Shown piece after piece: positions 7,332-56,000 of a stretch of DNA of 64,000 bases. The stretch is from an uncultured Verrucomicrobiae bacterium (GTDB taxonomy: Bacteria; Verrucomicrobiota; Verrucomicrobiia; Limisphaerales; UBA11358): NCBI GenBank assembly GCA_963780535.1, contig CAWACS010000043.1:17613-81612 (forward strand). The letters are read 5' to 3'. Each line of letters begins with the position of its first letter. Position 1 is the first letter of the stretch. The notes beneath the pieces were generated by a model. The model saw only the letters and a list, made by a program, of their open reading frames with translations, searched no databases and was not told where the DNA came from. A program made the translations under genes and the position numbers.

Positions 7332-7853
7332 TTGTTAACCAAGCCACCATGCTTGATAAATCCATTGAAGCGACAAAGCAAAAAACAGAGCCAAGATCGT
7401 GTATCCGGCTCTGTTATCCTTGTTATAAGCCGAACACTTTTTATAAAATCAGCGGGAGTGTTGTTAACATTGACAGCGTTGGCAAAGCTGTATACAGCAT
7501 ATGCGGGATTGCGAATAATTGATTTGCACGATCCAATTCTGGGGTTCCGATTTCGCCACGAGTTGTTAGCCATCGGCATATTGGAGTTAACAATCGCTTG
7601 CGTGTGTTTGCTTACAAACCGCATCGGCTTGCAGTTGGGGCTTATTGCATGGCTGGGAACATGCTTCGCGGTGTATCGGTTAGGTCTATGGTGGATCGGC
7701 GGTGTTCAAGCTTGTCCTTGTCTCGGCAATTTTCCTGATGATCTTCATCTTTCAAAGGCAATCACCAATGCTATAACGTCGTGGATTATAATCTATTTAT
7801 TGATAGGGAGTTACAGCGGGCTGCTTAATATATGTTTACGAAAATCGGAGTAG
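7332..7853 (+). CDS. MauE/DoxX-like four-helix membrane protein
   Basis: Starts 3 nt after the previous stop (TTG start in the track). Four hydrophobic helices. CPCLG motif after helix 3, resembling the CGCFG-type motif of the MauE family. Confidence 0.5.
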
Positions 7854-10186
7854 TTTTCAGAGCAACAGTGCTGCTCGCAGTGCTTGTTTGCTGCCTATTC
7901 CAGTATGCATTGCGGTATCGCAGTCCTTTGAATAGGGATATTGCCACATTTGAACTGGTTTTTCTGCCTCAAGCCCAGTGGATGATTTTCGTGCTGGCTT
8001 GTGTTTGGTGCATTGGTCTGATCGCTTTGACGTATCAGTGGAACAATTTGTGGTTGATTGGACTTCTGTTGATTGTAGTCTTCGCCTATGCATCAAATTA
8101 CAAAATAGCTGCCTCGGATCCCAGCGCCTTAATTCTGTTGGTTGCTGTGGCTGCTGGCAAAGGAATCCTTTATTTTCGACAACAGAGACTCACACTTTCC
8201 TGTCTGATTGCGCTCTTGGTGGTGGCTTCCTGTTGGCACATTGAAAAGATTGTTGGCCATTATGTCGGGCCGCGCTGGATGGGGCTTTGGGATAATCCCA
8301 ATGACTACGGGTTGTTGATGGCCGTGGGCTTGATTCTAGCCGTTGGATTGTTGGCCGCGAAGAGGCACAAAAGGCACATAGAAACAGCAAATCAGAAAGC
8401 GGAAGGCGGAAACCAGGAAATAACAATCATAAAAAGGTACAAAGAGCACAAAGAAAATTCAAATTCTTTATTCCGTTCCTTTTTGCGTTCTCTGCGCTTT
8501 TTTGCGGCCAAAATAATTTCTGTTCTTCTTTTTATCGCGGCCTTTATGATGGCAACAGGATTGATCTTCAGTTACAGCCGTGGCGCATGGGTGGGAACGG
8601 CCATTGGGTTGCTGTATCTGGCAATGACTTACGGAAAGTTCAAGTGGCGGTGGGTGATACCGGGAATTTTCGTCGTGGCGGCGGTGGTATGGTTTTTCTG
8701 GAATGCCACGCCGGACAATGCGCCGTGGTATGTGAAGCGGCTGGATTTAGGCAGGGCATCGGCGCAACACCGGGTTGCGGCTTGGAAAGCGGGCTTTCAA
8801 ATGATGCGGGATCATCCTTTTGGCGTGGGTTGGAACGAGGTCGTTGATCTTTATCAGAAAAATTATTTGCCGCCGGAAGATGGCGCGGCGGCCATTACCA
8901 CGAATGATTATTTGATGCTGGGGACGCAATTGGGCTTGCCAGGGTTGATTTGTTTTGTGGCCTACGCTGCGCTCTGCTTTGTAGATAGGAGATGGAAGTT
9001 GGGAGTTGGCAAAGAAAAGCCTCACCTCACCCCGGCCCTCTCCCCATTTGGCCCCGCTGCCCCCGCCAAACGCGGAGAGGGAGAATTGTCGGTCGTCGCG
9101 ACGCAAACCATTTCACTTGGCACTCGTCACCTGTCACCCGCTTTCGCGTCACTTGCCACCCGTCACCTGTCACTCCAAGCCGCCTGCCGTTCGGCGGCGC
9201 TGGCCATGCTGGTGGCGTTTTGGTTTGACGGCGGGTTGTTCAAGCTGGCCACGGCAGCGGTGTTCTGGATTCTGTTGGAATTGGGAGCAGAGACAAGACG
9301 GAAGACAGAGGTCAGGGACCAGAAGACAGAGATCGAAAATCAGAAGTCAGAAGTCAGAAACCCGACCTCTGACCTCCGACCTCTGACTTCCGGCTTTACG
9401 CTCATTGAATTGCTGGTCGTTATCGCCATCATCGCAATTCTGGCCGCGCTATTGCTGCCCGCTCTTTCTGTCGCTAAACGAAGGGCTTCAGATATTCAGT
9501 GCATAAATAATCTCGGCCAAATGGCGATAGCAGGCACGCTATATTCCCATGATCACGATAAAACCGTCGCTTATACGGACGACTTGGGTATACCAAGGGC
9601 TGGCGACATCTGGTTGGCCCTTTTAAGCGAGTATTACTCTAATGTGAATGCCATTCGCCTCTGCCCGTTCGCATCGCAAGTCGCTACAAACACAGTTTGG
9701 TACGCAAAAGACATGAATAGCGCATGGCTTTTCAGATCCGTGGTGGATCCGAATAAGACTTATTCGGGGAGCTACGCGATGAATGGCTGGCTTTACACAG
9801 GTTTGCCGGACCCCAACGGCTACTTTTTCGAAAAATATTCCGCTGTAAAAAATACATCCATGACTCCGTTTTTCTGCGATTCCATCTGGGCAGATGTCTG
9901 GCCCGATGAAGTATCCGGCCCGGCGATTGATTTGACGAGGGGCGCGCTCACACCGGATATTGGACGCATAACCATTGCTCGACACGGCATATCTCCCGGG
10001 AATGTCCCCAGAAACATGACGGGCACCACGCCACTTCCGGGGTTCATCAATCTCTCCTTTATGGATGGACACGCGGAACGGGCATCCTTGGAGAGTCTGT
10101 GGGGGTTTTTGTGGCATCTAAAGTATGCGCCGCCAAAAATCCGCCCCCCGGCGATCGGTCAACCTCCACCGTGGCCGCCTAAATGA
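7832..10186 (+). CDS. single 784-aa ORF joining an O-antigen-ligase/Wzy_C-type polytopic protein to a prepilin-type protein
   Basis: N-terminal about 490 aa are multi-TM with Wzy_C-type loop motifs ([39 protein letters not shown]). There is no stop codon before the pilin-like module. The junction and one loop consist of repeat elements. Confidence 0.6.
9036..9081. repeat. CCCTCTCCCC...GGAGAGGG palindromic element inside a CDS
   Basis: Arms at 9036-9045 and 9074-9081. Translated in frame as [16 protein letters not shown]. Same arm sequence as the elements at 30291-30389. Confidence 0.7.
9124..9176. repeat. 7-nt periodic array (GTCACCY-type) inside a CDS
   Basis: tcGTCACCTGTCACCCgctttcgcGTCACTTGCCACCCGTCACCTGTCACTcc, translated as [17 protein letters not shown]. 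Confidence 0.7.
9289..9391. repeat. inverted pair of 7-nt arrays, (CAGAAGT)n / (GACCTCT)n, at the ligase-pilin junction
   Basis: Left: ...atCAGAAGTCAGAAGTCAGAAA. Right: GACCTCTGACCTCCGACCTCTGACTTCC. The arms are imperfectly complementary. Translated as ...[21 protein letters not shown]. Confidence 0.75.
9392..10186 (+). other. prepilin-type N-terminal cleavage/methylation module with DUF1559/H-X9-DG-like C-terminus
   Basis: G|[24 protein letters not shown] class-III signal at 9392. C-terminal ...[11 protein letters not shown]. No in-frame ATG/GTG/TTG in the roughly 30 codons upstream, so no independent canonical start is visible. Confidence 0.6.
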
Positions 10187-23790: not shown

Positions 23791-25464
23791 TCAGCTGATT
23801 TGCAACCACACCGTCTTCAAATAGGCCGGTTCGGCGCGGCTGACGGGGAAATCCGGCGGCTGCGGAAAATAATGCTGCTGTAAAATTTCCCGTCGCGCGT
23901 GAAGGACGGCGGTTTCGACCTCGGCGAGAAACGCCTCCGGCGGCCAGTCGGTGGCATTGGTCGAGGCCAACAGGATTCCGCCCGGCTTTACCAGCGGCAG
24001 CGCCGCGGTCACAAGTTTTGCATAATCCTTCTCCACCCGGAACACACCGCTTTCCTTCGACTGCGAAAATGTCGGCGGATCGAGCAGCACGGTGTCGAAC
24101 CGGCGGCCCTTTTTCGCCAGCCGTCGCAGCCAGTCGAATGCATCGCCGTAAATGAACTCGTGCGCCGCTGGGTCCAGCCCGTTCACCGTGAAGTTGCGCC
24201 GGCCCCATTCGAGGTATTTCCTCGAGAGATCAAGGCTCGTCGTCCGGGCGCCCGCCCGCGCCGCACAGACGGAAAAACCGCAGGTGTAGGCGAATACGTT
24301 CAGAAGTTCGGAGTTCGGAGTTCGGAGTTCGGAGTTCGAAAAATCCGCGGCGATGTAACCGGTCAAAATTCGGCGGCGGTTGTCGCGCTGGTCCAAAAAC
24401 AAACCCATGGAATAACCTTCGTTGAAACTCAACTCAAAGCGGACGCCATTTTCCATGATCTCGAACCGCTCCGGCGCGGCCTCCCCCAGCACCCGTTGTG
24501 GCGACGCCTCCGCCGTCGTCGTGCGCCGAACCTGTTGCGACAGGATTTTGTGATACGCGCCGCGCGCGGCAAACGTTTTCAGCAGTCGCGCCAGCCCGTC
24601 GCGCTGGTCCACCCGCAACGGTTGCCCGGATTGCGAGAGCAGAAAATCGCCCAATCGCTCTACATACCATCCCGGCCAGCCGTCGCTCGCGCCGTGAATC
24701 GCGCGGAAGGCATTCGTCGCTTCCGGCTCGATCACCGCGGCCCGCAACGCGCAGGAGCCGACGTGAGGAGGCCCTGACTTTTCTGTTTTGTTTTTGAGAC
24801 TCGTCACCTCGTCTCCTGCAAAGTCAGCCGGCGCGCCAAATGTCACCGGCTTGCCGGTGGTCGGATGGGTGAAGAAAATTTCCGCCGCGTGCAGAAAGAC
24901 GCGCGACGACGTCGTGCCGCCATAGAGCGTGTCGCCGAGAACGGGAAATCCACTCTCCGCGGCGTGAACGCGGATCTGGTGCGTGCGTCCGGTAAGCGGC
25001 TCGGCCTCAATCACGTTGCAGCGGCGGTCACAGACCGCCGATACAGTAAAACGCGTTTCCGCGATTTCCGCACCCGTATGCGGCGGCCGGCTCACATACC
25101 TGTCACCGGCCCGAACCAGCGCGGTCTTGACCGTGAATTCCCCTTCTGGCACTTCGCGGTCGGTGAGCAGGAGATATTTCTTGCGGACACGCCGTTGCGT
25201 GAATTGTTCGGTCAGCGAACGGTTGGCGGCGGGGGTTTTGCCAAACACGAGCACGCCGCTCGTTTCCTTGTCCAGCCGGTGCAAAATCGCCAGCGCCGAC
25301 CAGCGCGGCTCGCGGTGGCGCAGCCAGTCGTAGATGCCCTCGCCCGCGTAGGGGCCGGGCGCATGCGTGTTCCAGCCGGCAGGCTTGTGGACCACCAGCA
25401 GATGCTCATCCTCAAAAATCACGCACGGCGCCATGCCCAGATGAAAGCATTTTCCCCCGCCCAA
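23791..25464 (-). CDS. fusion protein: RluA-family pseudouridine synthase (N-terminal) plus RlmI/RlmK-type SAM methyltransferase (C-terminal)
   Basis: N-terminus: FEDEHLLVVHKPAGWNTH and HRLDKETSGVLVFGKT (catalytic Asp motif). C-terminus: LLNVFAYTCGFSVCAARAGA (motif I) and VLLDPPTFSQSK. ATG 25434 is an alternative start. Confidence 0.75.
   Translation of the reverse strand: MGGGKCFHLGMAPCVIFEDEHLLVVHKPAGWNTHAPGPYAGEGIYDWLRHREPRWSALAILHRLDKETSGVLVFGKTPAANRSLTEQFTQRRVRKKYLLLTDREVPEGEFTVKTALVRAGDRYVSRPPHTGAEIAETRFTVSAVCDRRCNVIEAEPLTGRTHQIRVHAAESGFPVLGDTLYGGTTSSRVFLHAAEIFFTHPTTGKPVTFGAPADFAGDEVTSLKNKTEKSGPPHVGSCALRAAVIEPEATNAFRAIHGASDGWPGWYVERLGDFLLSQSGQPLRVDQRDGLARLLKTFAARGAYHKILSQQVRRTTTAEASPQRVLGEAAPERFEIMENGVRFELSFNEGYSMGLFLDQRDNRRRILTGYIAADFSNSELRTPNSELLNVFAYTCGFSVCAARAGARTTSLDLSRKYLEWGRRNFTVNGLDPAAHEFIYGDAFDWLRRLAKKGRRFDTVLLDPPTFSQSKESGVFRVEKDYAKLVTAALPLVKPGGILLASTNATDWPPEAFLAEVETAVLHARREILQQHYFPQPPDFPVSRAEPAYLKTVWLQIS
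24303..24340. repeat. 7-nt array (GGAGTTC)x5 inside the methyltransferase domain
   Basis: GAAGTTC GGAGTTC GGAGTTC GGAGTTC GGAGTTC. On the mRNA (minus) strand it reads (GAACTCC)n, translated as [11 protein letters not shown], directly before SAM motif I. Confidence 0.85.
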
Positions 25465-39548: not shown

Positions 39549-40286
39549 TCATGAAGTTAGCGTTTGTTGCCACCATACCGAAAGCATTGCATAATATGCC
39601 GCGCTTGCCCACTCTCCTTTGACGCGCCACTGCTCGAGGAACTCTCCTTCTAATTTCATGCCTGCCTTCTCAACCATTCGACGACCAGCGAGGTCTCGAA
39701 CATCTATTCTGACCCGAATGTCATGCAGAGCGATGCCGTTAAACCCAAAATCGAGGAGGCCACGAACCGCTTCAGTTCCATATCCTCGCCGTCGGTAACC
39801 AGGATGTATCATTATATGGAATGATCCCTGCCGATGCTCTTCTGGGTCATTTAAATCAAACGTCAGATTGCCTATAACCTTCACATTTTCTTTGAGTTCG
39901 ATTCCTAAAGCCAAGCGCCCATTAGGAGACGCGAGCCGAAGGGTCTTACATTTCTCCAACCAAATCCTGGTTTCTTCATCGTCCGGCGGGTAGTTAGTGA
40001 GATATTTATAGGAATCGTGATCTGTCACAAATTCAAGCCAGTCGGGCAGATCTTCCGTCCGCAATGGTCTTATGTTTAATCTCGGCGTTTTAATTGGAAG
40101 CGGAAGTTCTCTACCTTTTTCCGAGCCAGCCGGCGGGACTACTACTGTTTCGGAACAGTGCGGACATTCCTGCGCCGTGCCGAGGCGTGTTTCGGGAAAC
40201 GAAAGCGCCGCACCGCAATATGGACACCGAAAATCTATCAATTCATCGTCTGGCCGCTCAATGCTCATGACAATTCCAGCTTTCAA
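39549..40286 (-). CDS. GNAT (RimJ/RimL-type) N-acetyltransferase with N-terminal zinc ribbon
   Basis: CPYCGAALSFP...CPHCSETVVVP, then LRPLRTEDLPDWLEF...GYRRRGYGTEA (acetyl-CoA motif A). The ATG overlaps the argD stop (ATGA). Visibly lower GC than its neighbours. Confidence 0.75.
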   Translation of the reverse strand: MKAGIVMSIERPDDELIDFRCPYCGAALSFPETRLGTAQECPHCSETVVVPPAGSEKGRELPLPIKTPRLNIRPLRTEDLPDWLEFVTDHDSYKYLTNYPPDDEETRIWLEKCKTLRLASPNGRLALGIELKENVKVIGNLTFDLNDPEEHRQGSFHIMIHPGYRRRGYGTEAVRGLLDFGFNGIALHDIRVRIDVRDLAGRRMVEKAGMKLEGEFLEQWRVKGEWASAAYYAMLSVWWQQTLTS

Positions 40287-41593
40287 ACCAGCGATTTGAC
40301 GACTTCCTCGATTTTGCCGATGCCTTCACCGGCTTCCTGCGGCTTGAGGTTCAACGGCGGCAGCAGCCGCACGATTTGCGTTCCCGCTGGTATCGTCAGC
40401 ACGCCGGCCGAGTGCAGCCGGTTGACCAACTGGACCGCCGCCGTCTGGTCGCCCGAGGCGAACGCCGGAATTTTCTCCTTCTCCACCAGTTCCAGGCCGA
40501 GCATGAAACCAAATCCCCGCGCGCCCTTGAGCACCCGCGGATAACGGGCGACCAGCTGTTCCAGCCCGTGCTTCATCCAGTCGCCGAGTTGGCGCGCGTT
40601 TTCATCCAGCCGCTCGCGTTCGATGACCTCCAGGACTTTGAGCGCCACGGCGCAGGCCAGCGGCGTGCCGCCAAACGTCGTCGCGTGCGTGCCCGGCCCG
40701 AGCAGATCCGCATACGGCGCCCGCACCCAGAACGCGCCGATGGGAAATCCGCCGCCCAACGATTTGGCCATCGAAATGCCGTCGGGCCGGAAATCGGAGT
40801 CCGGAGTTCGAAGTCCGGAGTCCGGAGTTGCCGCTTCGAGAATCCTTTGGAAGCTCTGGAATCGGCCCGTCCGATAATGTCCGCACTGCACGCCATCAAG
40901 GAACAGCAGCAGCTTTTTCTCGTCGCACAACGCGCGCAGGCCCAGGAGGTATTCCGGCGTGGCAGGCGTGACGCCGCCCTCGCCCTGCACACCTTCAATG
41001 AGAATGGCGACCGTCGCGGGCGAAATCGCCGCGCGCACCGCCGCCAGATCGTTGAACGGCACGTGCCGGAAACCCGGCGTCATCGGTTCAAACCCCTTTT
41101 TAACCTTGTCCTGGCCGGTCGCCGCGATGGCGGCCAGCGTGCGCCCATGAAACGAGTTCGTCGCGGTCAGGATTTCAAACCGGCCCTCGGCGTGACCGAA
41201 TTTCCGGGCCAGTTTGAACAACCCTTCGTTGGCCTCCGCGCCGCTGTTGGCGAAGAAGCATTTGCCCGGGCCGATGCGTCGGACCAGTTCGGCGGCCAGC
41301 CGGCCCTGCGGCTCGGTGAAATACAGGTTCGAGACGTGAATCAGCTTGCGCGATTGCTCGACGAGCGCCTCGGTGATGGCCGGATGCGCGTGGCCGAGGC
41401 AGCACACAGCGATGCCGCCGCCCAGGTCGAGATAACGTTTGCCCGCAACGTCAAAAACGTAACTGCCCGCGCCGTGGCTGAGCACGAGGTCAAAACGCCC
41501 GTAGCTCGGCACGACGTTCTGGTTGAACAATTGCCGCACCGACTCGTGCTGGTTGTGCACGAGCGGCGGCGGTGAGGGAACGATTTCTTTCAT
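40283..41593 (-). CDS. argD: acetylornithine aminotransferase
   Basis: Class-III aminotransferase motifs (GGGIAVCCLGHAHP, LLFLDGVQCGHYRTG, AKSLGGGFPIGA). Start moved to ATG 41593, because the upstream ATG 41629 lies inside a repeat element. Confidence 0.85.
   Translation of the reverse strand: MKEIVPSPPPLVHNQHESVRQLFNQNVVPSYGRFDLVLSHGAGSYVFDVAGKRYLDLGGGIAVCCLGHAHPAITEALVEQSRKLIHVSNLYFTEPQGRLAAELVRRIGPGKCFFANSGAEANEGLFKLARKFGHAEGRFEILTATNSFHGRTLAAIAATGQDKVKKGFEPMTPGFRHVPFNDLAAVRAAISPATVAILIEGVQGEGGVTPATPEYLLGLRALCDEKKLLLFLDGVQCGHYRTGRFQSFQRILEAATPDSGLRTPDSDFRPDGISMAKSLGGGFPIGAFWVRAPYADLLGPGTHATTFGGTPLACAVALKVLEVIERERLDENARQLGDWMKHGLEQLVARYPRVLKGARGFGFMLGLELVEKEKIPAFASGDQTAAVQLVNRLHSAGVLTIPAGTQIVRLLPPLNLKPQEAGEGIGKIEEVVKSLV
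40807..40841. repeat. 7-nt array (GGAGTYC)x5 inside argD
   Basis: GGAGTCC GGAGTTC GAAGTCC GGAGTCC GGAGTTG. On the mRNA strand it is translated as TPDSGLRTPDSD. Confidence 0.8.
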
Positions 41594-41617
41594 TTCCGGT
41601 TCAGGCTTTGCATTTTT

Positions 41618-41690
41618 GTTGGAGTTCACGCTTCAGCGTGTTGGCTCGGAAAGAGCGCGACTCCCGACAAGCTAAAGCTTGAACGCCAAC
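41618..41690. repeat. TGGAGTTCA-type palindromic element at the argD 5' end
   Basis: GTTGGAGTTCACGCTTCAGCGTG...CAAGCTAAAGCTTGAACGCCAAC. Confidence 0.7.
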
Positions 41691-46588: not shown

Positions 46589-48649
46589 TTAATGTTTCTG
46601 ATATCGTTGCTGCATTTCGGGGGAGAGATCCCCAAAATTGACCTTCGTCATCGCCCACCCGCCGCCCGCCGGCGTATAACTGATGATGATTCCGTCCGAC
46701 ATCACCCGTTGCACCTCCGCATTTCTGTAGATGGATCCCGTAATGGTCACAAGTGCCGGAGCCTGTCTTGTCTGTGCCAAGGGACGGGGTCGCATTGGCG
46801 CCGCGTGAAGCACCAGGGAGGTCTTGGGCATTGCCAGCGCCACCGGCCGTAGCGTCTTGATTGGCGCCGCAACCACCGGTCGGGAGGTGACAACTGGAGC
46901 CACCGCAGCATGGGCGACCACCGGAGTGGGTTTCACGGAAATGACTTTGGCCACGGCGACAGGAGCTTCAGTTGCCGTTTCGGCGGCCACGGAAGCTTTC
47001 GGAGCCGAAGCAGGAGTAACCGGAGCCGCCGCTGGCGGTTGAGCCTGCGGATGATCCAAGTCGTACATTTTTTGCTCCAAAGCCGCCCGGGCAACCGCCA
47101 TTTCTGAAGCGCTGACAGCGGGAGCGGGAGTGGCACTGTCGATGGTGGCTGTGGAAACCGATGTTTCGTTTGTAGCCGCAGGGGCAGATGACGCTTCCGC
47201 AACCGGAGCCGTCGTCGGAGTGGTTACCGCTGGAGTTTCAACTGTCGGTGCCGTGGGTGCCGTGGCTTCAGCCGAAGTGGCCGCGGCAGGAGCAACGTCG
47301 GTTGTGGCTGCGGAAACCGGTTTAGTCTCAGTCGGAACGGCGGTCACGGTATTGGTGTCAACCGATGTTTCATTCGTAGCCGCAGGGGTAGATGACGCTT
47401 CGGCAACCGGAGTTGTCGTCGGAGCGGTTGCCACCGGAGTTTCCATTGTCGGTGCCGTCGGTGCCGTGGCTTCAGCCGAAGTGGCCGCGGCAGGAGCAAC
47501 GTCGGTTGTGGCTGCGGAAACCGGTTTGGTCTCAGTCGGAACGGCGTTCACGGTATTGGTGTCAACCGATGTTTCGTTCGTAGCCGCAGGGGTAGATGAC
47601 GCTTCGGCAACCGGAGTTGTCGTCGGAGCGGTTGCCACCGGAGTTTCCATTGTCGGTGCCGCCGATGCCGTGGCTTCCGTCGAAGCGGTCGCGGCTGGAG
47701 CAACGTCGGTTGCGGCGGTGGAAACCGGTTTGGTCTCAGTCGGAACGGCAGCTACGGAATTGGTGGCAAAAGACGTTTCGTTCGTGGCTGCGGGAGCAGA
47801 CGACGCTTCGGCAACCTGAGCCGTCGTCGGAGCGGTTGCCACCGGAGTTTCCATTGTCGGTGCCGCCGATGCCGTGGCTTCCGTCGAAGCGGTCGCGGCT
47901 GGAGCAACGTCGGTTGCGGCGGTGGAAACCGGTTTGGTCTCAGCCGGAACGGAGGTCACGGTATTGGTGGCAAAAGACGTTTCGTTCGTGGCCGCGAGAG
48001 CAGACGACGCTTCGGCAACCGGAGCTGTCGTCGGAGTGGTTGCTACCGGAGCTTCAATTGTCGGTGCCGCCGGCGCCGTGGCTTCCGTCGAAGCGGTCGC
48101 GGCTGGAGCAACGTCGGTTGTGGCTGTGGAAACCGGTTTGGTCTCAGCCGGAACGGCAGCTACGGAATTGGTGGCAACAGACGTTTCGTTCGTGGCCGCG
48201 AGAGCAGACGACGCTTCGGCAACCGGAGCCGTCGTCGGAGTGGTTGCCACTGGAGCTTCAATTGTCGGTGCCGCTGGCGCCGTGGCTTCCGTCGAAGCGG
48301 TCGCCGCAGGAGCAACGTCGGCGGCGGCGGTGGAAACCGGTTTGGTCTCAGCCGGAACGGCAGCTACGGAATTGGTGGCCTCAGACGTTTCGTTTGTAGC
48401 CGCAGGGGTGGATGACGCTTCCGCGACCGGAGCCGCCGCCGCGGTGATGTTGGTCGTGGAGGATGCGGATTGCGCCGCCGCCGTTAAATTTGTATCCGTC
48501 GACGGCTGGGCCTGCGGGTGGTCGAGCTCAAATATTTTTTGCTCGAAAGCCGCGCGGGCCGCGGCCTGGTCCGGCGTATCATCCGCACGGGCAGAAAGCA
48601 TGGTCGCCGCCACAACGACGGATAAGCCAACCTGGATTCGGGTTTTCAT
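46589..48649 (-). CDS. secreted Ala/Thr/Pro/Glu-rich tandem-repeat protein with SH3-like C-terminal domain
   Basis: Signal peptide MKTRIQVGLSVVVAATMLSA at ATG 48649. Six full copies and one partial copy of a 68-aa unit. C-terminus ...GSIYRNAEVQRVMSDGIIISYTPAGGGWAMTKVNFGDLSPEMQQRY. Confidence 0.75.
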   Translation of the reverse strand: MKTRIQVGLSVVVAATMLSARADDTPDQAAARAAFEQKIFELDHPQAQPSTDTNLTAAAQSASSTTNITAAAAPVAEASSTPAATNETSEATNSVAAVPAETKPVSTAAADVAPAATASTEATAPAAPTIEAPVATTPTTAPVAEASSALAATNETSVATNSVAAVPAETKPVSTATTDVAPAATASTEATAPAAPTIEAPVATTPTTAPVAEASSALAATNETSFATNTVTSVPAETKPVSTAATDVAPAATASTEATASAAPTMETPVATAPTTAQVAEASSAPAATNETSFATNSVAAVPTETKPVSTAATDVAPAATASTEATASAAPTMETPVATAPTTTPVAEASSTPAATNETSVDTNTVNAVPTETKPVSAATTDVAPAAATSAEATAPTAPTMETPVATAPTTTPVAEASSTPAATNETSVDTNTVTAVPTETKPVSAATTDVAPAAATSAEATAPTAPTVETPAVTTPTTAPVAEASSAPAATNETSVSTATIDSATPAPAVSASEMAVARAALEQKMYDLDHPQAQPPAAAPVTPASAPKASVAAETATEAPVAVAKVISVKPTPVVAHAAVAPVVTSRPVVAAPIKTLRPVALAMPKTSLVLHAAPMRPRPLAQTRQAPALVTITGSIYRNAEVQRVMSDGIIISYTPAGGGWAMTKVNFGDLSPEMQQRYQKH
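47156..48433. repeat. 204-nt tandem repeat, about 6.3 copies (coding)
   Basis: The period is seen directly: near-identical out-of-frame track ORFs start at 47392 and 47596 (204 nt apart). The protein unit is APVAEASSxxAATNETSxxTNxVxxVPxETKPVSxAxTDVAPAAxxSxEATAxxAPTxExPVATxPTT. Confidence 0.85.
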
Positions 48650-48865
48650 AAATTTTCCTGTCTTCACCGGCCCTTGCGAGCATCTCCGGGGCCAATCTGG
48701 TTGGTCGCCGGTGCAAAGCGCATTTTTCCTCCAGCGAACGGTTTCCGGGGATGTCCGGGGATGATAGGAAATTCCATCTTCATGGAAAATTCCCGTTTGA
48801 ATCACAATATTGGTGAATGTCCAAATATTTGACGGGCTGGTATAAGTCGTGAAGACTGGAGATTA

Positions 48866-51250
48866 ATGGCAACCGACCCGATTTGCGGCATGACGGTGAA
48901 CGAAACGTCCGCCTTGCGCACCGAACGGGACGGGCAGACGTATTATTTTTGCTGCGAACATTGCCGGCAAAAGTTCTCGGAAATTCCGAACTCCGAACTC
49001 CGAACTCCGAACTCCGGCCATGGCCACGGGCATCACGGCGAGGCGGCGGCAAAGCCGGCCTCAAACACGCGGTATTTTTGTCCGATGTGTCCCGGTGTGG
49101 AATCGGACCGGACGGGCGATTGCCCGAAGTGCGGGATGCCGTTGGAACCCAAAACCGTGTCCGCCGAACCGGAGGACGACGGCGAAACCCGCACGCTGGC
49201 CCGCAAATTCCGGATCGGCCTGGCGCTGACCATTCCCGTCGTGTTTCTGGCAATGGGCCAATGGATTCCCGGCGTGCCAATCGACCGGTGGATTTCCAGG
49301 CCGGTTTCCCATTGGCTGGAATTGTTGTTGAGCACGCCGGTGGTGGTGTGGACGGGCGGGATCTTTTTTGGCCGGGCGTGGCGGTCGTTGAAGACGCGCC
49401 AGTTGAACATGTTTACCCTCATCGCGACCGGCGTCGGTGCGGCGTACGTTTACAGTGTCGTGGCCGTCGTCGCTCCCGGCATTTTCCCGCCATCGTTCCG
49501 GCAGCACGGCGTGGGACTTTATTTTGAGGCGGCCGCGGTCATCACCGTGCTGGTGTTGCTGGGACAGATGCTCGAAGCCAAAGCACGCCGCCGCACCGGA
49601 CAGGCCATCCAGGCGCTGCTCGGTCTGGCAGCCAAAACCGCGCACCGCGTCCGGGACGGCCACGAACTGGATGTGCCGGTGGAGGAATTGCAAAAAGGCG
49701 ACGTGCTGCGCATCCGGCCCGGCGAAAAGATTCCCCTCGACGGTGTGATGATCGAAGGCCACAGCAACGTGGACGAATCCATGATCACCGGTGAACCGAT
49801 GCCGGTCACCAAAGGCGTGCATGACGCGGTCGTCGGCGCGACCGTAAATCAAACGGGAACGTTTCTGATGCGCGCGGAGAAGGTCGGCTCGGAAACCCTG
49901 CTGGCGCAGATCGTGCAAATGGTGGTGGAAGCCCAGCGCAGCCGCGCGCCCATCCAGAAACTGGCGGACAGCGTGGCGGGCTATTTTGTGCCGACCGTCA
50001 TCGGCGCCGCCATCATCACCTTCGTGGTCTGGGCCGTTTGGGGACCGGCGCCGGCCATGGCCTGCGCGCTGGTCAATGCGGTGTCGGTGCTCATCATTGC
50101 CTGTCCGTGCGCGCTGGGTCTGGCGACGCCGATGTCCATCATGGTCGGCGTGGGCCGCGGCGCGCAGTCGGGCATTCTCATCCGAAACGCGGAAGCGATT
50201 GAAACGACGGAAAAGGTCACGCACCTGCTGACCGACAAGACCGGAACATTGACCGCCGGAAAACCGAAGGTGGTGAGCACCGTTTCGTCCCGTAGCAGCC
50301 GACGTGAGTCGGCTCAAACTGAAGGTTTTATAGAGGGTCAGAGCCGACTGACGTTGGCTGCTACAGATTTTAAAGAAGACACGCAACTGCTCGGCCTGGC
50401 TGCGTCGGTCGAGCAACTGAGTGAACATCCGCTGGCCCGGGCGATTGTGGACGAGGCAAAGGAAAGGAGAATCGCCCTGTCGCCGGTGAATGATTTTGAA
50501 TCCATAACCGGCGGCGGCGTGTCGGGAAAGATCGGCGACCGGACAGTCCGCGTGGGCAAGGAGAAATTTCTAAGTGAATTCGGCGTGATGATTCCCGACG
50601 ACTTGAAACAGGCATCGCAGCAACTTCAGGAAAAGGCGCAGACGGTGGTCTGGGTGGCGGTGGATGGCAGGGCGGTTGGCATCATCGGCATTGCCGATCC
50701 CATCAAGGAAACGACGCCCGCTGCCATCCGGGCGCTGCATGACATGGGACTGAAGGTCATCATGTGCACCGGCGACAATCGCAAGACCGCCGAGGCGGTG
50801 GCAAAGGAACTGGGCATTGACGAAGTCCGGGCGGAGTTGTCGCCGCAGGGTAAACATAAGCTGGTGAAGAAACTGAAAGCCGAGGGCAAGATTGTGGCGA
50901 TGGCCGGCGATGGCATCAACGACGCGCCCGCTCTGGCCGAGGCGCACGTGGGCATTGCGATGGGGACCGGAACGGACGTGGCCATCCAAAGTGCCGGCAT
51001 CACGCTGGTGAAAGGCGACCTGCAGGGCATCATCAAGGCGCTGTCCCTCAGCCGGGGCGTGATGAAGAACATCCGGCAGAATTTATTTTTCGCGTTTGTC
51101 TATAACGCACTGGGCGTGCCGATTGCGGCGGGAATTTTATATCCGGTGGCCCACCTGCTGCTCAATCCAATGATTGCCGGCGCCGCGATGAGTTGCAGCT
51201 CGCTCTCGGTCGTCAGCAACGCGCTGCGCCTGCGCAAGTTGAAATTGTAA
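48866..51250 (+). CDS. copA: copper-translocating P1B-type ATPase with N-terminal TRASH/YHS and CxxC-x-CxxC metal-binding modules
   Basis: DPICGMTV...[17 protein letters not shown]...[15 protein letters not shown] ([13 protein letters not shown]), DKTGTLT and GDGINDAP. Confidence 0.9.
48980..49017. repeat. 7-nt array (CGAACTC)x5 inside copA
   Basis: GAAATTC CGAACTC CGAACTC CGAACTC CGAACTC CGG, translated as [13 protein letters not shown], in the linker between the two metal-binding modules. Confidence 0.85.
50292..50364. repeat. GCAGCCGACGT-type palindromic element inside copA
   Basis: GTAGCAGCCGACGTGAGTCGGCTC-loop-GAGCCGACTGACGTTGGCTGCTAC, translated as [24 protein letters not shown]. It lies about 20 codons after DKTGTLT. 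Confidence 0.8.
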
Positions 51251-52479: not shown

Positions 52480-52965
52480 ATGCGGTCATTCGAAGGTCAT
52501 TGGTCCCGCTTTTTCCTCCGGTCAGTCGCGCTGGCCGTGCTCATGCTTTGGTGCGGCTGCCAGACGACGACCCAAAATCTGTTCACGGCCACCGGCCCCG
52601 GCTGGCACATCCAACAAGGCCAGGCGCTCTGGCGGCCCAAACAAGGCCTGCCGGAATTCGGCGGCGACCTCATATTGGCCACCAACGCGGACGGCTGGGC
52701 GCTGATTCAATTCGACAAGACGCCGCTGTCCATGGTGTTCGCACAGACCACTCCCACCCGTTGGTTCATCCAGTTTCCCCAGCAGCAGTATCATTTCTCC
52801 GGGCACGGGCTGGCACCCACCCGGTTTGCCTGGCTTTATCTGCCCGCGGCCCTGGCCGGGAAACCGCTGCCCCTGACATTGCGTTTTGAGCGCCGACCGC
52901 AGGGTGGCTGGCGGCTGGAAAACACCGGCACGGGAGAAACCCTGGAAGGTTTCCTGTCACCGTGA
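52480..52965 (+). CDS. small exported protein or lipoprotein, first gene of the lipid cluster
   Basis: Signal-like N-terminus FFLRSVALAVLMLWCGC. 161 aa. It occupies the position of the small lipoprotein (DUF3261-type) in aryl-polyene-type clusters; that equivalence is an inference only. Confidence 0.5.
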   Translation: MRSFEGHWSRFFLRSVALAVLMLWCGCQTTTQNLFTATGPGWHIQQGQALWRPKQGLPEFGGDLILATNADGWALIQFDKTPLSMVFAQTTPTRWFIQFPQQQYHFSGHGLAPTRFAWLYLPAALAGKPLPLTLRFERRPQGGWRLENTGTGETLEGFLSP

Positions 52966-52998
52966 GAGGTTTCCGCAAAAAAATTCAAACCCGCACCC

Positions 52999-53068
52999 GG
53001 AACGCCGAGCACCGTCTCGGCGCAATGGAAAATCAACATCCTCACGCCGAGGCGGTGCCCGGCGTTCC
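52999..53068. repeat. GGARCGCCGAGCACCGTCTCGGC-type palindromic element (intergenic)
   Basis: GGAACGCCGAGCACCGTCTCGGC-loop-GCCGAGGCGGTGCCCGGCGTTCC. A second copy lies at 58825. Confidence 0.8.
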
Positions 53069-53086
53069 AATTTTACAAAAGTCACC

Positions 53087-56000
53087 GTGAGTTCCTTCCT
53101 GAAACGCTGGTGGTGGGCGCTGCTCCTCGTGGCCATCGGCCTCGGCGCCGGCCGGCTCCGCTTCGACGTGGACATTCTCAACCTGTTGCCGCCGGACGAG
53201 CCGACGGTCCAGGGCCTGAAACTTTACCAGGAGCATTTTGCCAACGCCCGCGAACTGATCATCACCCTCCGCGCACCGGATGCCGGGCAGGCGGAACGGT
53301 TGGCGGGCGAATTGGCCGACCGTTTGCGGCAGCAAACCAATCTGGTCTCGGAAGTAACCTGGCAGGCGCCGTGGATGGAACATCCGGAGCAACTGGGCGA
53401 ACTGCTCGGCTGGCTCTGGTTCAATCAATCCCCGGAGTCGTTTGCGGCACTGACCAACCGGCTCGCCCCGGACCAGCTCAAACCCACACTGGAGCAGACC
53501 AAGGAAGCGCTCGCCACGTCCATGTCGCCGATGGACCTGGCCCGGCATGAGTTTGATCCGTTCGATTTGTTGACGATGCCGGGGCTGACCAATCTCGCGG
53601 GTTTTTCAGGCGGGCAAAGCCAGCAGATGTTCGCCTCGCCGGACGGGAAATTCCGATTGTTGTACGTGGAATCCGCCGTGGATCTGGGCAGTTACCGTTC
53701 CTGTGAGAGCTGGTTGAAAGCGATTCATGCAATCGTCGGAGCGCCGGCATCCCTGCCGGCGACTGGGGGAACCAACGCGAGTGAAACACGCCGGAAAGAT
53801 CAGCCTTCGTCGGACTACGGCGCGACAGGTGCCGGCGCTCCCGGGACGAACGGCATCGTGGTCCGTTACACCGGGCGACCGGTGTTTGTGGAGGAAATCG
53901 CGACGAGCATGCAACACGACATGAGCCATTCGGTGGGCATCACTTCCACCGTCATTGCGCTGCTCTTCTGGCTGACGCATCGGCGCTGGCGTCCGATGCT
54001 GTGGTTGCTGGCGCTGCTCATGTTGATTTTGGGCGCGACGCTCGCGCTGGGCGGGCTGGTGCTGGGCACCATCAGCGTGGTGGCGCTGGGTTTCGCCGCC
54101 GTGTTGCTGGGTTTGGCGGTGGATTATGCCGTGGTGCATTATCAGGAGGCGCTCGCGCACCCGCAAATGACGGTGCCGGAAATCCGCCGCGCGATTGCGC
54201 CGAGCATTTTATGGGCGGCCATCACCACGATGAGCGCGTTTCTGGTGCTGAACCTGGGCGGGTTGCCCGGCCTGGGACAACTCGGCACGCTGGTGGCCAT
54301 CGGCATCGCCCTGTCAGCCCTGGTGATGGTGATGATTTATCTGCCGCCGCTGTTTCCCGACCGCCGGAAACCGCGTCCCGACCAGCCGCCATTCCGCTGG
54401 TGGAATTATTTCGTCGCGCCGCTACCGGGAGCGCCGGCATCCGTGCCGGCGAGTTCGGCGCTAAATGCAGGGTCTCGCCGGCAAGATCAGCCTTCGTCAG
54501 ACTACGGCGCGACAGGTGCCGGCGCTCCCGGCAATAACATCGCTTTCCCGCTCCTGTTGACCGGTTTGATTCCGCTCGTGGCGTGCGCGGTGTTATGTTT
54601 CCGCCAGCCGGGATTGGACCGGACCGGCAACGCCCTGCAACCGCAACACGGGGAGGCGCAGACCACCTTGGACGAAATCACGTCGGAACTGGGTCTGCCG
54701 CCGCAACCGCTTTGGGTCATCATTACCGGAAAGGATGAACCGGAAGTTTATCAACGTCTTACCAAGGCCGACGGGTTGTTGGACGGCGCGGTTTCAAATC
54801 ATGTCATCGGCCAGTATTTGCTGCCGACCGCGCTGTGGCCGCGCGTTGAATATCAGGCAGCCAACCGGACGGCGGCGGCGGCTCTGGGAACGAAAGGACC
54901 GTTGCTGCGGGACGCCGCGCTGGGCGATGGTTTCAACACCAACGCGCTCGTGTTGACGGAGGAATTGGTAAACACGTGGGCCAGCGCCGGCGCCGACACA
55001 AATGTCTTCTGGCCGACCAATCATCTCAGTCAATGGCTCTTGAAACGGTTCATCACCCGAAGTCCCAACGAATGGCTGGTAATGGGTCTGGTTTATCCCG
55101 CGACCAATCGGGTCGAGCCGGCGGCGCTGACCGGCTTGTCCACGCATCTGGCCCGGAACGGCGCGTTGCTGTCCAGTTGGGAATTATTGGGAGGCGCAAC
55201 CCTGAAGCGGGTGCAGTCAAGAATGGGGGAAGTGGTGACGCCGATGGTGGTGCTGGTGTTGCTTTCGCTCTGGTTCGCCTTTCACCGGGCAACGGAAATT
55301 CTGTTGGGCGTGGCGGTGTTGTGCCTGAGCGGACTGTGCCTGCTGGCCATCATGGCGGTGAGCGGCTGGACCTGGAACCTGATGAACCTGATGGCCCTGC
55401 CGTTGATGCTCGGCACGGGCGTGGACTACACCCTGTTCATCCAACTGGCGTTGCGCCGGCATGGCGGCGATCTCGGCGCGGTCCGGCGTTCCGTTGGCCG
55501 GGCGCTGATGTTGTGCGGCGGCACGGCCGTGGCCGGGTTTGGGTCTTTGGGATTTTCCAGCAATCCCGGCATGGCCAGCCTGGGCAAGGTGTGCGCGGTC
55601 GGCATTGGCGCCAATATGCTCATCTCCGTGTTTTTGCTTCCCACGTGGTGGCAGTTATTAAGGCCAAAGGCTAAAGGCCAAAGGCTAAAGGCTGAAGTTA
55701 AAGGCACGAAGTCAGCAAGCGGGGAGAGGGAATCCATCATCCATCATCCATCATCCATCAACGCGTTTTCTTTGTATCGCGCCGGTTTGTGGCGGCTGGG
55801 ACTCGTCGTCGTCCGAATCCTGCCGGTCGGGTTGGTAAAAGGGTTCGCCATGATCGTGGCCGGGTTTTATTGGCGGTGCCAACGACAACGCTGCGAAGTG
55901 GTGGTGCAAAATTTCCTGCCTCTCTTTGCGGGCGACCGGGCGGCCGCCGCAAAGGCCGCGCATCGGCTTCACCGGAAGTTCGCCGCGAAGATGGTGGATT

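Follow-up and report, generated by a model that had tools for sequence, protein, structure and literature searches.

Heptamer arrays within three conserved enzymes

The window, by which we mean the entire 64-kb stretch of verrucomicrobial DNA analysed (64,000 nt), contains three genes for conserved enzymes that each carry, in frame, a short tandem array of GAACTCC-type heptamers. The copA gene (48866..51250, plus strand) encodes a Cu+ P-type ATPase of 794 aa with YHS, HMBD, E1-E2_ATPase and Hydrolase domains (Pfam). Its array, perfect by sequence reading and TRF, is (TCCGAAC)x4.6, equivalent to GAACTCC, and occupies 32 nt (48985..49016, plus strand) in the linker between the YHS (aa 3-41) and HMBD (aa 70-96) domains. 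A homologue search recovered a protein of the same length and 100% identical to this CopA (P0241, from a 109,702-bp MAG contig); an exact look-up of the CopA ORF gave none. An ORF at 23791..25464 on the minus strand encodes a fusion of an RluA pseudouridine synthase with an RlmI-like SAM methyltransferase (PF00849, PF10672 and homologues), the database protein for which (P0121) begins 10 codons inside the ORF. The array in its methyltransferase domain is likewise perfect (24305..24338, minus strand; 34 nt, 4.9 units, reading CGAACTC... in the sense direction), and the encoded peptide directly precedes LLNVFAYTCGFS, which is SAM motif I. The third gene, argD (40283..41629, minus strand; PF00202), encodes an acetylornithine aminotransferase, represented by a 436-aa database protein (P0001) that starts at codon 13 of the ORF. 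Its array (40795..40829, minus strand; sequence reading and TRF) consists of degenerate heptamers encoding TPDSGLRTPDS; the sense strand reads AACTCCG GACTCCG GACTTCG AACTCCG GACTCCG, a mosaic of GAACTCC, GGACTCC and GGACTTC units for which TRF reports 85% matches and the consensus CGGAGTC.

The original prediction, of five GAACTCC units at each of these sites, was accurate for the perfect arrays of CopA and RluA-RlmI but not for ArgD, whose mosaic has another consensus and lies about 12 nt from the position then given (40807-40841); the ArgD peptide itself had been read correctly, PDSGLRTPDSD being found in the translation. It also stands that the mRNA-sense strand carries the GAACTCC-type repeat at all three sites, with the genes on different DNA strands, and that the unit contains no stop codon on either strand (GAA CTC CGA ACT CCG AAC TCC and GGA GTT CGG AGT TCG GAG TTC).

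Inserts were mapped by sequence alignment to solved structures, an AlphaFold2 model of ArgD being left unused because an alignment of 27 sequences gave too little depth (mean pLDDT 37.7). RlmI has 11 residues more than PDB 2b78 and E. coli RlmI (3c0k), and ArgD exceeds Thermotoga AcOAT (2ord) by 15 residues, an insertion in which the array lies, just upstream of the strand with the catalytic lysine. With the interdomain position in CopA, these alignments bear out the suggested orthologue comparison, and they support the view that the inserts are lineage-specific, in-frame additions to loops or linkers, rather than ancestral protein. Comparison of the sequences revealed no flanks, target-site duplications or terminal repeats common to the three arrays, and neither terminal inverted repeats nor target duplications were found at any of them. 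An Rfam scan of the window matched no family; for RNA folding, z was -1.8 at the ArgD array and about 0 at the other two.

Prevalence of period 7 in the window and beyond

Such repeats within genes are usual in the lineage, and the trio of arrays is an instance of this, not an element aimed at three genes. Besides these three, TRF identified at least 11 heptamer arrays in the window, built of other units and lying in Mfd, in an MMPL fusion or in a Wzy/prepilin ORF. The arrays in mfd, all in frame and on the plus strand (TRF, translation, Pfam), consist of CCTCGAC (18581-18608), AACTCAA (18710-18735), AAAATCC (19353-19391), GACCCCA (19631-19647) and TCCCATC (19897-19924), and the orthologous Mfd sites of relatives hold other units. 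Imperfect AAGGCTA x6.7 and perfect ATCCATC x4.1 (55660..55760, plus strand) lie in the linker from an MMPL to a lipid A acyltransferase domain, and adjacent arrays of TCAGAAG x2.9 and GACCTCT x3.4 (9340..9387, plus strand) lie between a Wzy_C domain and a prepilin-type N-terminal motif. The latter, with sequence at 9300-9323, form an inverted-array hairpin. Chance does not account for these runs: (GAACTCC)x3 with up to 3 mismatches gave nine overlapping matches in the window, all within the CopA, RlmI and ArgD sites, and none in 100 dinucleotide-preserving shuffles, while exact period-7 runs of 18 nt or more numbered 5 in the window versus 0.0 in shuffles, the same comparison showing no enrichment there of the other periods from 6 to 12.

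Period 7 is the dominant tandem repeat period in this Limisphaerales-like clade. In 80 related loci (939 kb), exact period-7 runs numbered 64, compared with 1-11 for periods 5, 6 and 8-12, and of the 158 period-7 arrays that TRF detected there, 141 (about 90%) lie inside long ORFs with positive codon scores. The preference extends to other phyla, where 863 kb from 120 loci among the matches listed contained 212 period-7 runs versus 0-15 for other periods. A GTDB scan located GAACTCC arrays in at least 120 loci of many phyla, with hosts among the matches listed that include Calothrix, Crocosphaera, Hormoscilla, Dolichospermum, Verrucomicrobiota, Omnitrophota, Acidobacteriota and others; the cyanobacterial arrays among these matches are mostly intergenic. 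The same unit occurred at two or more loci in 16 of 96 genomes among the matches listed from that scan, and GAACTCC occurs at three sites within the 64 kb of the host genome that the window covers. GAACTCC is not globally special, since in viral contigs it occurs at 14 loci, against 16 and 11 for two control heptamers matched in composition. The proposal of three copies of one special array has thus to be given up: the ArgD consensus differs, the window abounds in arrays of other units, and the same RlmI loop holds other units elsewhere.

Allelic variation at the array sites

The anticipated polymorphism among strains is present, and always in steps of 7 aa. Between alleles of close relatives the step is exactly 21 nt, or three units: ArgD has AACTCCG x5 in one locus (L244, 434-aa protein) and x2 in another (L242, 427-aa protein), alleles of 2 and 5 units occurring at 92-95% protein identity, and long and short alleles are likewise found for RlmI (LFKSEIGNRKSEIL versus LFKSEIL) and CopA (IPNSEFRTPNSVRP versus IPNSVRP). 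Short and array-free alleles are known in close relatives for all three proteins. In searches that lean towards intact genes and consensus assemblies, none of 80 RlmI loci carried a frameshifted allele, and the listed ArgD and CopA homologues, which differ by whole 7-aa steps, included no out-of-frame step. Six RlmI loci that failed a motif search, and so were candidates for frameshifts, all proved to be in frame; an apparent frameshift in the CopA array of L243 relative to L242 reflects differing gene callers, the DNA being identical.

Variation also takes the form of replacement. Whole-array replacement occurs among ArgD homologues (e.g. PTSDPRPPTS), and a single RlmI loop position holds, across lineages, arrays of AAATCGG, CAATCCG, AATTCAA, CGATTCA, CCCTCAA, CCAGACG, TTTGGAC or CCGAACT. 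Flanks that are 96-98% identical may carry unrelated cassettes, divergence being limited to about -10 to +15 nt round the array, and cassette types are polyphyletic on the flank tree. Identical arrays also occur in flanks differing by 12-19%: AAATCGG x4.6 is 100% identical in four lineages with flanks 81-88% identical, and three lineages share, letter for letter, a 39-nt CopA tract (the array plus 7 nt), two of them (L247 and L248) with copA genes 85.5-87% identical to that of the window. Array length is highly uniform, at about 4.6-4.9 units. Correlated unit change between ArgD and CopA within genomes, a sign of inter-locus homogenisation, was not evident: one genome combines ArgD PTSDPRPPTSD with CopA NPGSEFRTPES, and a contig with CopA TPHSALGTPHS has ArgD NVAPNSD.

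Orientation and similarity of units

Array orientation in the clade follows peptide hydrophilicity, not a transcript rule. The sense strand encodes the less hydrophobic peptide in 62 unique clade arrays versus 17 (p = 4e-7), and the sense orientation originally taken to be linked to transcription does not generalise, since the GAACTCC arrays in the matches listed across phyla read sense in 48 cases and antisense in 26, a bias of only 48:26, with 58 more being intergenic. The idea that unrelated sites share units beyond chance fared better. Units at non-orthologous sites are somewhat more alike than in composition-matched, stop-free shuffles (identical, 1.2% versus 0.23%; at most one mismatch, 5.2% versus 2.6%), similarity is greater within a locus than between loci (11-13% versus 5.3%, p about 0.001-0.002), and some 10 unit families are common to unrelated sites in Mfd, RlmI, CopA and ArgD. 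This clustering, the within-locus likeness and the repeated units per genome suggest that arrays are to some extent copied from site to site, or that a sequence preference operates beyond plain slippage.

Comparison with known repeats

Rickettsia palindromic elements are in-frame selfish repeats of about 100-150 nt in genes for conserved proteins. Like them, the GAACTCC arrays are short repeated DNA placed in frame in loops of conserved housekeeping proteins, which are not destroyed by it; unlike them, they are tandem heptamers of 21-35 nt with no palindrome. Set against RPE/REP/MITE-like elements generally, they display in-frame insertion in permissive loops but lack the hairpin architecture. 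With phase-variable contingency loci they share a tandem repeat of non-3n unit within an ORF; however, the strains differ only by three units, no out-of-frame alleles were found, and the hosts are housekeeping genes (ArgD, CopA, RluA-RlmI, Mfd), in contrast to the surface, virulence or restriction-modification functions of such loci.

Heptamers are the most abundant class of long simple sequence repeats (LSSRs) in many bacteria, for which polymerase slippage has been proposed (Mrazek 2007, as related in PMC4679880 and PMC4692102). As far as those accounts go, LSSR heptamers (Mrazek, Guo and Shah 2007) resemble ours in their head-to-tail 7-nt units beyond chance, in the excess of period 7 over its neighbours and in their hosts, large-genome environmental bacteria. 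The arrays described here qualify as members of that class in having perfect runs of 32 and 34 nt (with one of 85%), enrichment of period 7 and strain-variable copy number. They differ from the LSSRs in those accounts in that about 90% lie in frame in conserved genes, with three-unit allele steps. Surveys, as reported in the same two articles, find non-3n units under-represented in ORFs and heptamers mainly intergenic, a coding depletion that the clade arrays do not show (141 of 158 in long ORFs). Verrucomicrobiota are not among the LSSR host cases described in PMC4679880 and PMC4692102, and our literature searches found no report of in-frame heptamer repeats in Verrucomicrobia.

TAACTGA repeats occur in Beggiatoaceae, Cyanobacteria and Bacteroidetes, their spreading mechanism not being known (PMC4679880). 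These and the cyanobacterial STRRs are similar to our arrays in that a given heptamer recurs in distant phyla; each occupies many sites of one genome, as GAACTCC may do, but they are mainly intergenic, and TAACTGA has stops in all forward frames (PMC4679880). The verrucomicrobial arrays are stop-free and comprise many units per genome, with no single dominant unit seen; all three arrays in question, and about 90% of those of the clade, are coding. The GGGNATC arrays of Xanthomonas and Nostoc are likewise abundant and favour about 4 units per array, but are G-rich, intergenic and G-quadruplex-forming (PMC4692102), whereas the GAACTCC arrays are coding and have neither G-tracts nor a fold signal.

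Origin and maintenance of the arrays

We regard it as reasonably probable that the three arrays are ordinary heptanucleotide microsatellites, of the STRR or LSSR type, situated in coding genes, tolerated in loops, altered in three-unit steps and reshuffled by recombination. Array length would change through replication slippage or misaligned repair. Since 7 and 3 have no common factor, three heptamer units (21 nt) make one 7-aa peptide period in any reading frame, as the sequence shows directly; in genes, the frame would be kept only by changes of three units, and surviving alleles would therefore fall into two sizes, of about 2 or about 5 units. Selection may spare arrays only where they lie in surface loops or in linkers between domains, and mostly the orientation giving a hydrophilic peptide would survive, ELRTPNS for instance being favoured over GVRSSEF. 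The loop cassettes may be old polymorphisms, or may have been swapped between related lineages by short-tract homologous recombination, either of which would explain the discordance of array type with flank phylogeny. We infer, then, that slippage generates the arrays, that they change by several units at a time, and that recombination shuffles them. The array-encoded peptides are probably without function of their own, and the added 7-amino-acid loops in three housekeeping enzymes of this uncultured soil verrucomicrobium are harmless.

Several observations sit awkwardly with so simple a scheme. A single slippage event cannot turn a two-unit seed into five units: the route requires passage through frameshifted alleles, or repeated slipping within one pass of replication, and neither was observed. 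Perfect arrays are also better conserved than their coding flanks, which is not what neutral decay in its simple form predicts; it calls for fast turnover from a seed that is itself conserved, for recent spread, or for constraint. The likeness of units at non-orthologous sites and within a locus, and the recurrence of one unit at several loci of a genome, count against the scheme as well.

Alternatively, the heptamers could constitute dispersed or mobile families, arrays being copied between non-homologous sites by template switching or templated break repair with an array as donor, and the three GAACTCC arrays deriving from one source. We consider this unlikely. The unit families spanning unrelated Mfd, RlmI, CopA and ArgD sites are in its favour, but at least 10 different units exist in the window alone, and there is therefore no single master unit. 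Greater likeness of units within a locus, and recurrence of one unit at several loci in 16 of 96 genomes among the matches listed, also agree with it, as do the genome-specific families of such kind reported for TAACTGA repeats (PMC4679880); yet, compared across relatives, the units at one site of a genome do not change together with those at another, and the CopA, RlmI and ArgD arrays have no common flank, target-site duplication or terminal repeat. Closely related backgrounds do hold different cassettes out of one repertoire, but these alleles bring with them a few linked flank differences, which allelic recombination fits better than copying of arrays alone. Inverted pairs of one array exist, as expected of fold-back template switching.

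A bolder and decidedly speculative extension, to which we attach a low probability, is that the clade's arrays, and perhaps bacterial heptamers generally, arise and spread through a dedicated or at least specific process, which would write about three units at once and copy unit families between non-homologous sites. The arrays would then be mobile microsatellites without a transposase, settling in protein loops and afterwards crossing lineages by recombination. Candidate processes would be reiterative templated synthesis in break repair, or fold-back template switching. If true, this would explain the shared families, the conservation of arrays above flanks, their uniform size of about 4.6 units and the inverted pairs.

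A functional role appears improbable, whether as a selected peptide module (a flexible or regulated linker) or as a contingency switch in which slippage by one unit in either direction toggles argD, copA, mfd and rlmI. The conservation of perfect arrays above flank level, even at would-be synonymous positions, and their uniform length of about 4.6-4.9 units speak in its favour; but short or array-free alleles in close relatives of all three proteins argue that the peptide is dispensable, the same loop tolerates peptides unrelated to one another, and palindromic elements in frame as well, and the arrays have no RNA structure. A non-3n unit within an ORF is indeed the layout of phase-variable genes, but neither the 80 RlmI loci nor the ArgD and CopA homologues listed include an out-of-frame allele, and the genes concerned serve housekeeping rather than surface or restriction-modification functions. 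That the segments are ancestral protein, chance coincidence or assembly artefact, a reading of negligible probability to which only the sharing of the CopA segment by many relatives at 75-85% identity lends colour, is refuted by orthologue alignments and shuffle controls, for the segments are missing from solved orthologues and some close relatives, no shuffle produced a match, and arrays of at most 35 nt recur in independent JGI, ENA and NCBI assemblies.

Bacterial heptamer repeats, with their 7-nt preference and genome-specific families, have been noted since the reports of cyanobacterial STRRs. The clade offers a clean natural experiment on repeat dynamics: selection in genes removes all but three-unit steps, and the dynamics are therefore recorded in the protein alignments of thousands of metagenomic relatives. 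It shows loops of conserved enzymes gaining and exchanging short disordered segments, and the sites in ArgD, RlmI, CopA and Mfd are candidate permissive sites for engineered insertions. For annotation there is a hazard, in that protein length variation is inflated by repeat-encoded inserts of 7-aa periodicity and by in-frame palindromic elements. Elements of the latter kind occupy the ArgD and RlmI loops in some relatives.

Heptamer arrays in the window and across the clade

The arrays in copA and in the gene for a fused RluA-RlmI protein are perfect period-7 runs of one heptamer, as originally described: a 32-nt run at 48985-49016 on the plus strand (TCCGAAC x4.6, within ORF 48866-51250) and a 34-nt run at 24305-24338, reading GAACTCC on the minus, coding strand of ORF 23791-25464. 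The original prediction placed the same array in argD as well. An array is indeed present on the coding strand of ORF 40283-41629, at 40795-40829 (encoding ATPDSGLRTPDSD), about 12 nt from where it had been located, but its units are related rather than the same (AACTCCG GACTCCG GACTTCG AACTCCG GACTCCG; TRF consensus CGGAGTC, 85% matches). A search of the window for (GAACTCC)x3, allowing up to three mismatches, returned these three sites only, and 0 of 100 dinucleotide-preserving shuffles of the window contained a match; the arrays are not a product of chance. Direct reading of GAACTCC bears out the absence of stop codons in every phase on both strands, and since 7 and 3 are coprime, the choice of frame merely rotates the peptide period, ELRTPNS on one strand and GVRSSEF on the other.

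The trio is part of a much larger class. Seven is the sole enriched exact tandem period in the window (5 runs of 18 nt or longer; shuffles gave 0.0), and TRF reports 14 period-7 arrays, the focal three included. The other 11 have different units and are likewise in frame: five in Mfd, two in the linker of an MMPL-acyltransferase fusion and four in the Wzy_C/prepilin ORF 7832-10186, two of the latter lying between the Wzy_C domain and the prepilin-type N-terminal motif. This ORF, which carries an O-antigen-ligase (Wzy_C) domain and a prepilin-type N-terminal methylation motif in one reading frame, probably represents two separate genes, or else stop-free repeats have obscured where one gene ends and the next begins. 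In 80 related loci from metagenomes (939 kb), retrieved with the RlmI fusion as query, we counted 64 exact period-7 runs, whereas periods 5, 6 and 8-12 had 1-11; perfect runs usually had lengths of about 27 and 32-33 nt. TRF found 158 period-7 arrays in these loci, 141 of them in long ORFs with positive codon-usage scores.

Host proteins and sites of insertion

Exact or near-exact database matches of the host proteins lie on a 109,702-bp MAG contig; the closest relatives carry the labels Verrucomicrobiota, Verrucomicrobiae or Limisphaerales. By Pfam, CopA comprises YHS (aa 3-41) and HMBD (aa 70-96) domains and the ATPase core, with the array between the two metal-binding domains; ArgD is a class-III aminotransferase, and the third host joins an RluA pseudouridine synthase to an RlmI-type SAM methyltransferase in one protein. 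Orthologue alignments agree with the expectation of inserts placed in loops or linkers. The ArgD segment LEAATPDSGLRTPDSDF leaves 15 residues unmatched against Thermotoga maritima acetylornithine aminotransferase (2ord), directly upstream of the catalytic-lysine strand, and the RlmI array peptide is an 11-residue insertion relative to the RlmI-family structures 2b78 and 3c0k (E. coli RlmI), directly preceding the first strand and motif I of the methyltransferase domain. Since the AlphaFold model of ArgD failed on a shallow alignment (pLDDT 38), surface exposure of these loops is suggested from sequence only.

The pseudouridine-synthase half of the RluA-RlmI fusions contains a second array hotspot at about aa 140-160 (near gene nt 410-480 in related loci L135, L143, L157, L159, L165 and L176), where units again differ by lineage. 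A large part of the 120-aa variation in length among family members (P0121-P0240, 531-648 aa) is due to this hotspot.

Allelic steps and variation of units

Length alleles, sought as strain-level polymorphism, were found. ArgD relatives at 92-95% protein identity to the window's ArgD carry either the loop AATPNSDFLP (427 aa) or a longer form (434 aa); at the DNA level, AACTCCG AATTCCG in one locus (L242) corresponds to five AACTCCG units in another (L244), a difference of exactly 21 nt. The RlmI loop shows comparable pairs (LFKSEIL and LFKSEIGNRKSEIL; LFQSSIL and LFQSAIRNPQFAIL), as does CopA (IPNSVRP and IPNSEFRTPNSVRP). All 80 RlmI loci were in frame, in searches biased toward intact genes. 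In variant loops of ArgD relatives, including PTSDPRPPTS, an identical nucleotide change extends throughout all units of an array. The single RlmI loop holds perfect or near-perfect arrays of very different units across lineages, namely AAATCGG (KSEIGNRKSEI), CAATCCG, AATTCAA, CGATTCA, CAAATCG, CCCTCAA, CCAGACG, TTTGGAC (DFGPWTPDFG) and CCGAACT, and orthologous Mfd sites likewise differ in unit. One ArgD homologue (P0118, 448 aa) has a nested insert, its heptamer peptide being split by 12 aa (PNSEL-PPSVAKPLRRTG-RTPNS).

On balance we favor the reading that these are heptanucleotide microsatellites, tolerated in permissive loops and linkers, filtered by frame and peptide, and recombined as loop cassettes. 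Arrays would arise and change size through misalignment in replication or repair, with the reading frame limiting surviving alleles to three-unit steps and peptide hydrophilicity filtering orientation and composition; repeated contraction and re-expansion would homogenize them, and homologous recombination would then swap them between related lineages as short loop cassettes. Expansion of a two-unit seed to five units is impossible in one slip, and long alleles would thus appear to need transient frameshifts or several slips per pass.

Sharing, conservation and probable exchange of arrays

Units remain non-random, and some features go beyond plain slippage. At non-orthologous sites, 1.2% of pairs have identical units and 5.2% differ by at most one mismatch, against 0.23% and 2.6% expected from composition-matched, stop-free, hydrophobicity-capped unit shuffles. 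Pairs within one mismatch are commoner within a locus (11-13%) than between loci (5.3%; p ~0.001-0.002), and among the matches listed, 16 of 96 genomes have GAACTCC at several loci. Recurrence of one unit at three sites had been thought improbable; units do cluster above shuffles, but at the observed frequencies it is only slightly surprising that, of 14 arrays, two share a unit and a third differs by one mismatch. Such clustering is what the main rival, true copying of unit families between non-homologous sites, would predict; we consider that rival unlikely.

Perfect arrays are also better conserved than nearby synonymous sites, as follows from an AAATCGG array in the RlmI loop that is 100% identical in L176, L189, L160 and L142 within 687-nt coding flanks just 81-88% identical. 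The CopA array and the 7 nt 5' of it do not differ between the window (48978-49018) and two related loci (L247, L248), the copA genes being 85.5-87% identical. Turnover from a conserved seed, recent spread or constraint could be the cause. Conversely, unrelated cassettes occur in flanks 96-98% identical: CCCCAGA-type in L138 and TTTGGAC-type in L155, L130 and L134, L133 and L135, and L154 and a palindromic element in L162. Divergence is restricted to about -10 to +15 nt around the array, and cassette types are scattered on a neighbor-joining tree of the flanks. The linked differences just outside arrays favor short-tract allelic recombination, or old polymorphism with recombined flanks, over rewriting of the array only. 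The encoded peptides are most likely passengers, because they are missing from close relatives and their loops also take unrelated arrays, even palindromic elements; a role as linker module or contingency switch, with which constraint on conserved arrays would be compatible, is quite improbable.

Orientation, breadth and comparison with known repeats

Across the clade, of 79 informative unique arrays, 62 are oriented so that the coding strand gives the peptide poorer in hydrophobic residues (p = 4e-7); for units that are stop-free on both strands, this holds for 47 of 63. Over one period, every T of a unit falls once at the second codon position and thereby contributes a single hydrophobic residue. 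With one T in GAACTCC against two on the complementary strand, only a mild orientation bias is expected. All three focal arrays are sense, as reported, but the proposal of a transcript-linked rule fails, since GAACTCC arrays in other phyla (at least 120 loci, self-trained gene calls) include 48 sense, 26 antisense and 58 intergenic among the matches listed; together with the mild predicted bias, these counts make three of three no sign of such a mechanism.

The scan of the genome collection with (GAACTCC)x3 reached at least 120 loci in at least 96 genomes, the matches listed spanning Cyanobacteria, Verrucomicrobiota, Omnitrophota, Acidobacteriota, Planctomycetota, Bacteroidota, Nitrospirota and others. 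We rejected GAACTCC as a special unit: in a viral-contig collection it occurs at 14 loci, and two stop-free control heptamers matched in composition occur at 16 and 11, which implies that this breadth mirrors heptamer arrays generally.

As summarized in PMC4679880 and PMC4692102, Mrazek (2007) described heptamers as the commonest long SSR class in many bacteria, attributed them to polymerase slippage and noted that units not divisible by three are scarce in ORFs; three tandem heptanucleotides are cited from Calothrix (via PMC4692102). G-rich GGGNATC repeats of Xanthomonas and Nostoc (PMC4692102) and TAACTGA repeats, common to several phyla and with no known mechanism (PMC4679880), are mostly intergenic. 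The verrucomicrobial arrays share with these the period of seven, the occurrence of one unit across phyla and possibly genome-specific families, but they are mostly coding and in frame, their alleles are quantized in 21-nt steps, and one loop takes many alternative units. We found no prior description of such in-frame arrays in Verrucomicrobia in the literature searched.

Palindromic and inverted elements

The ArgD and RlmI loops are general sinks for small repeats. In other lineages they hold different in-frame palindromic inserts (ArgD of P0017, P0067, P0079 and others; RlmI of L129, L153, L159, L162, L167 and L175), such as GQASSLSGTNRQDACST, RVAGILPANQNSLSCQQDAGST and SEGRVPRVPIQS...NSGTRGTRPSE, whose DNA is clearly inverted-repeat. 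The MMPL-acyltransferase ORF (52886-56638) contains, twice and in frame, a palindromic element some 115 nt long (53735-53851 and 54425-54538; 92-96% identical across repeated stretches; arms of 27 nt, 81% complementary, with a 53-nt spacer), so that RRKDQPSSDYGATGAGAPG is encoded twice in one protein. Rickettsia bears in-frame palindromic elements, which this pair resembles.

Heptamer arrays also occur with their reverse complement 16-45 nt away, in the window at 9296-9400 and 19562-19586/19630-19654 (mfd), in the RlmI loop of L199, L191 and L192, and in L134 (6550-6636) and L165 (6831-6917). Some pairs are in frame in genes and some apparently intergenic (AACATCC/GGATGTT). By their complementarity they could form hairpins; the computed fold of 9296-9400 has -37.6 kcal/mol (z = -3.8).

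Directly upstream of copA, ORF 46589-48805 (minus strand) contains a 204-nt tandem repeat (47151-48435; 6.3 copies, 91% identity). Its 738-aa product, for which no Pfam match was found, has 68-aa Ala/Thr/Pro-rich repeats and a hydrophobic, signal-peptide-like stretch near the N-terminus.
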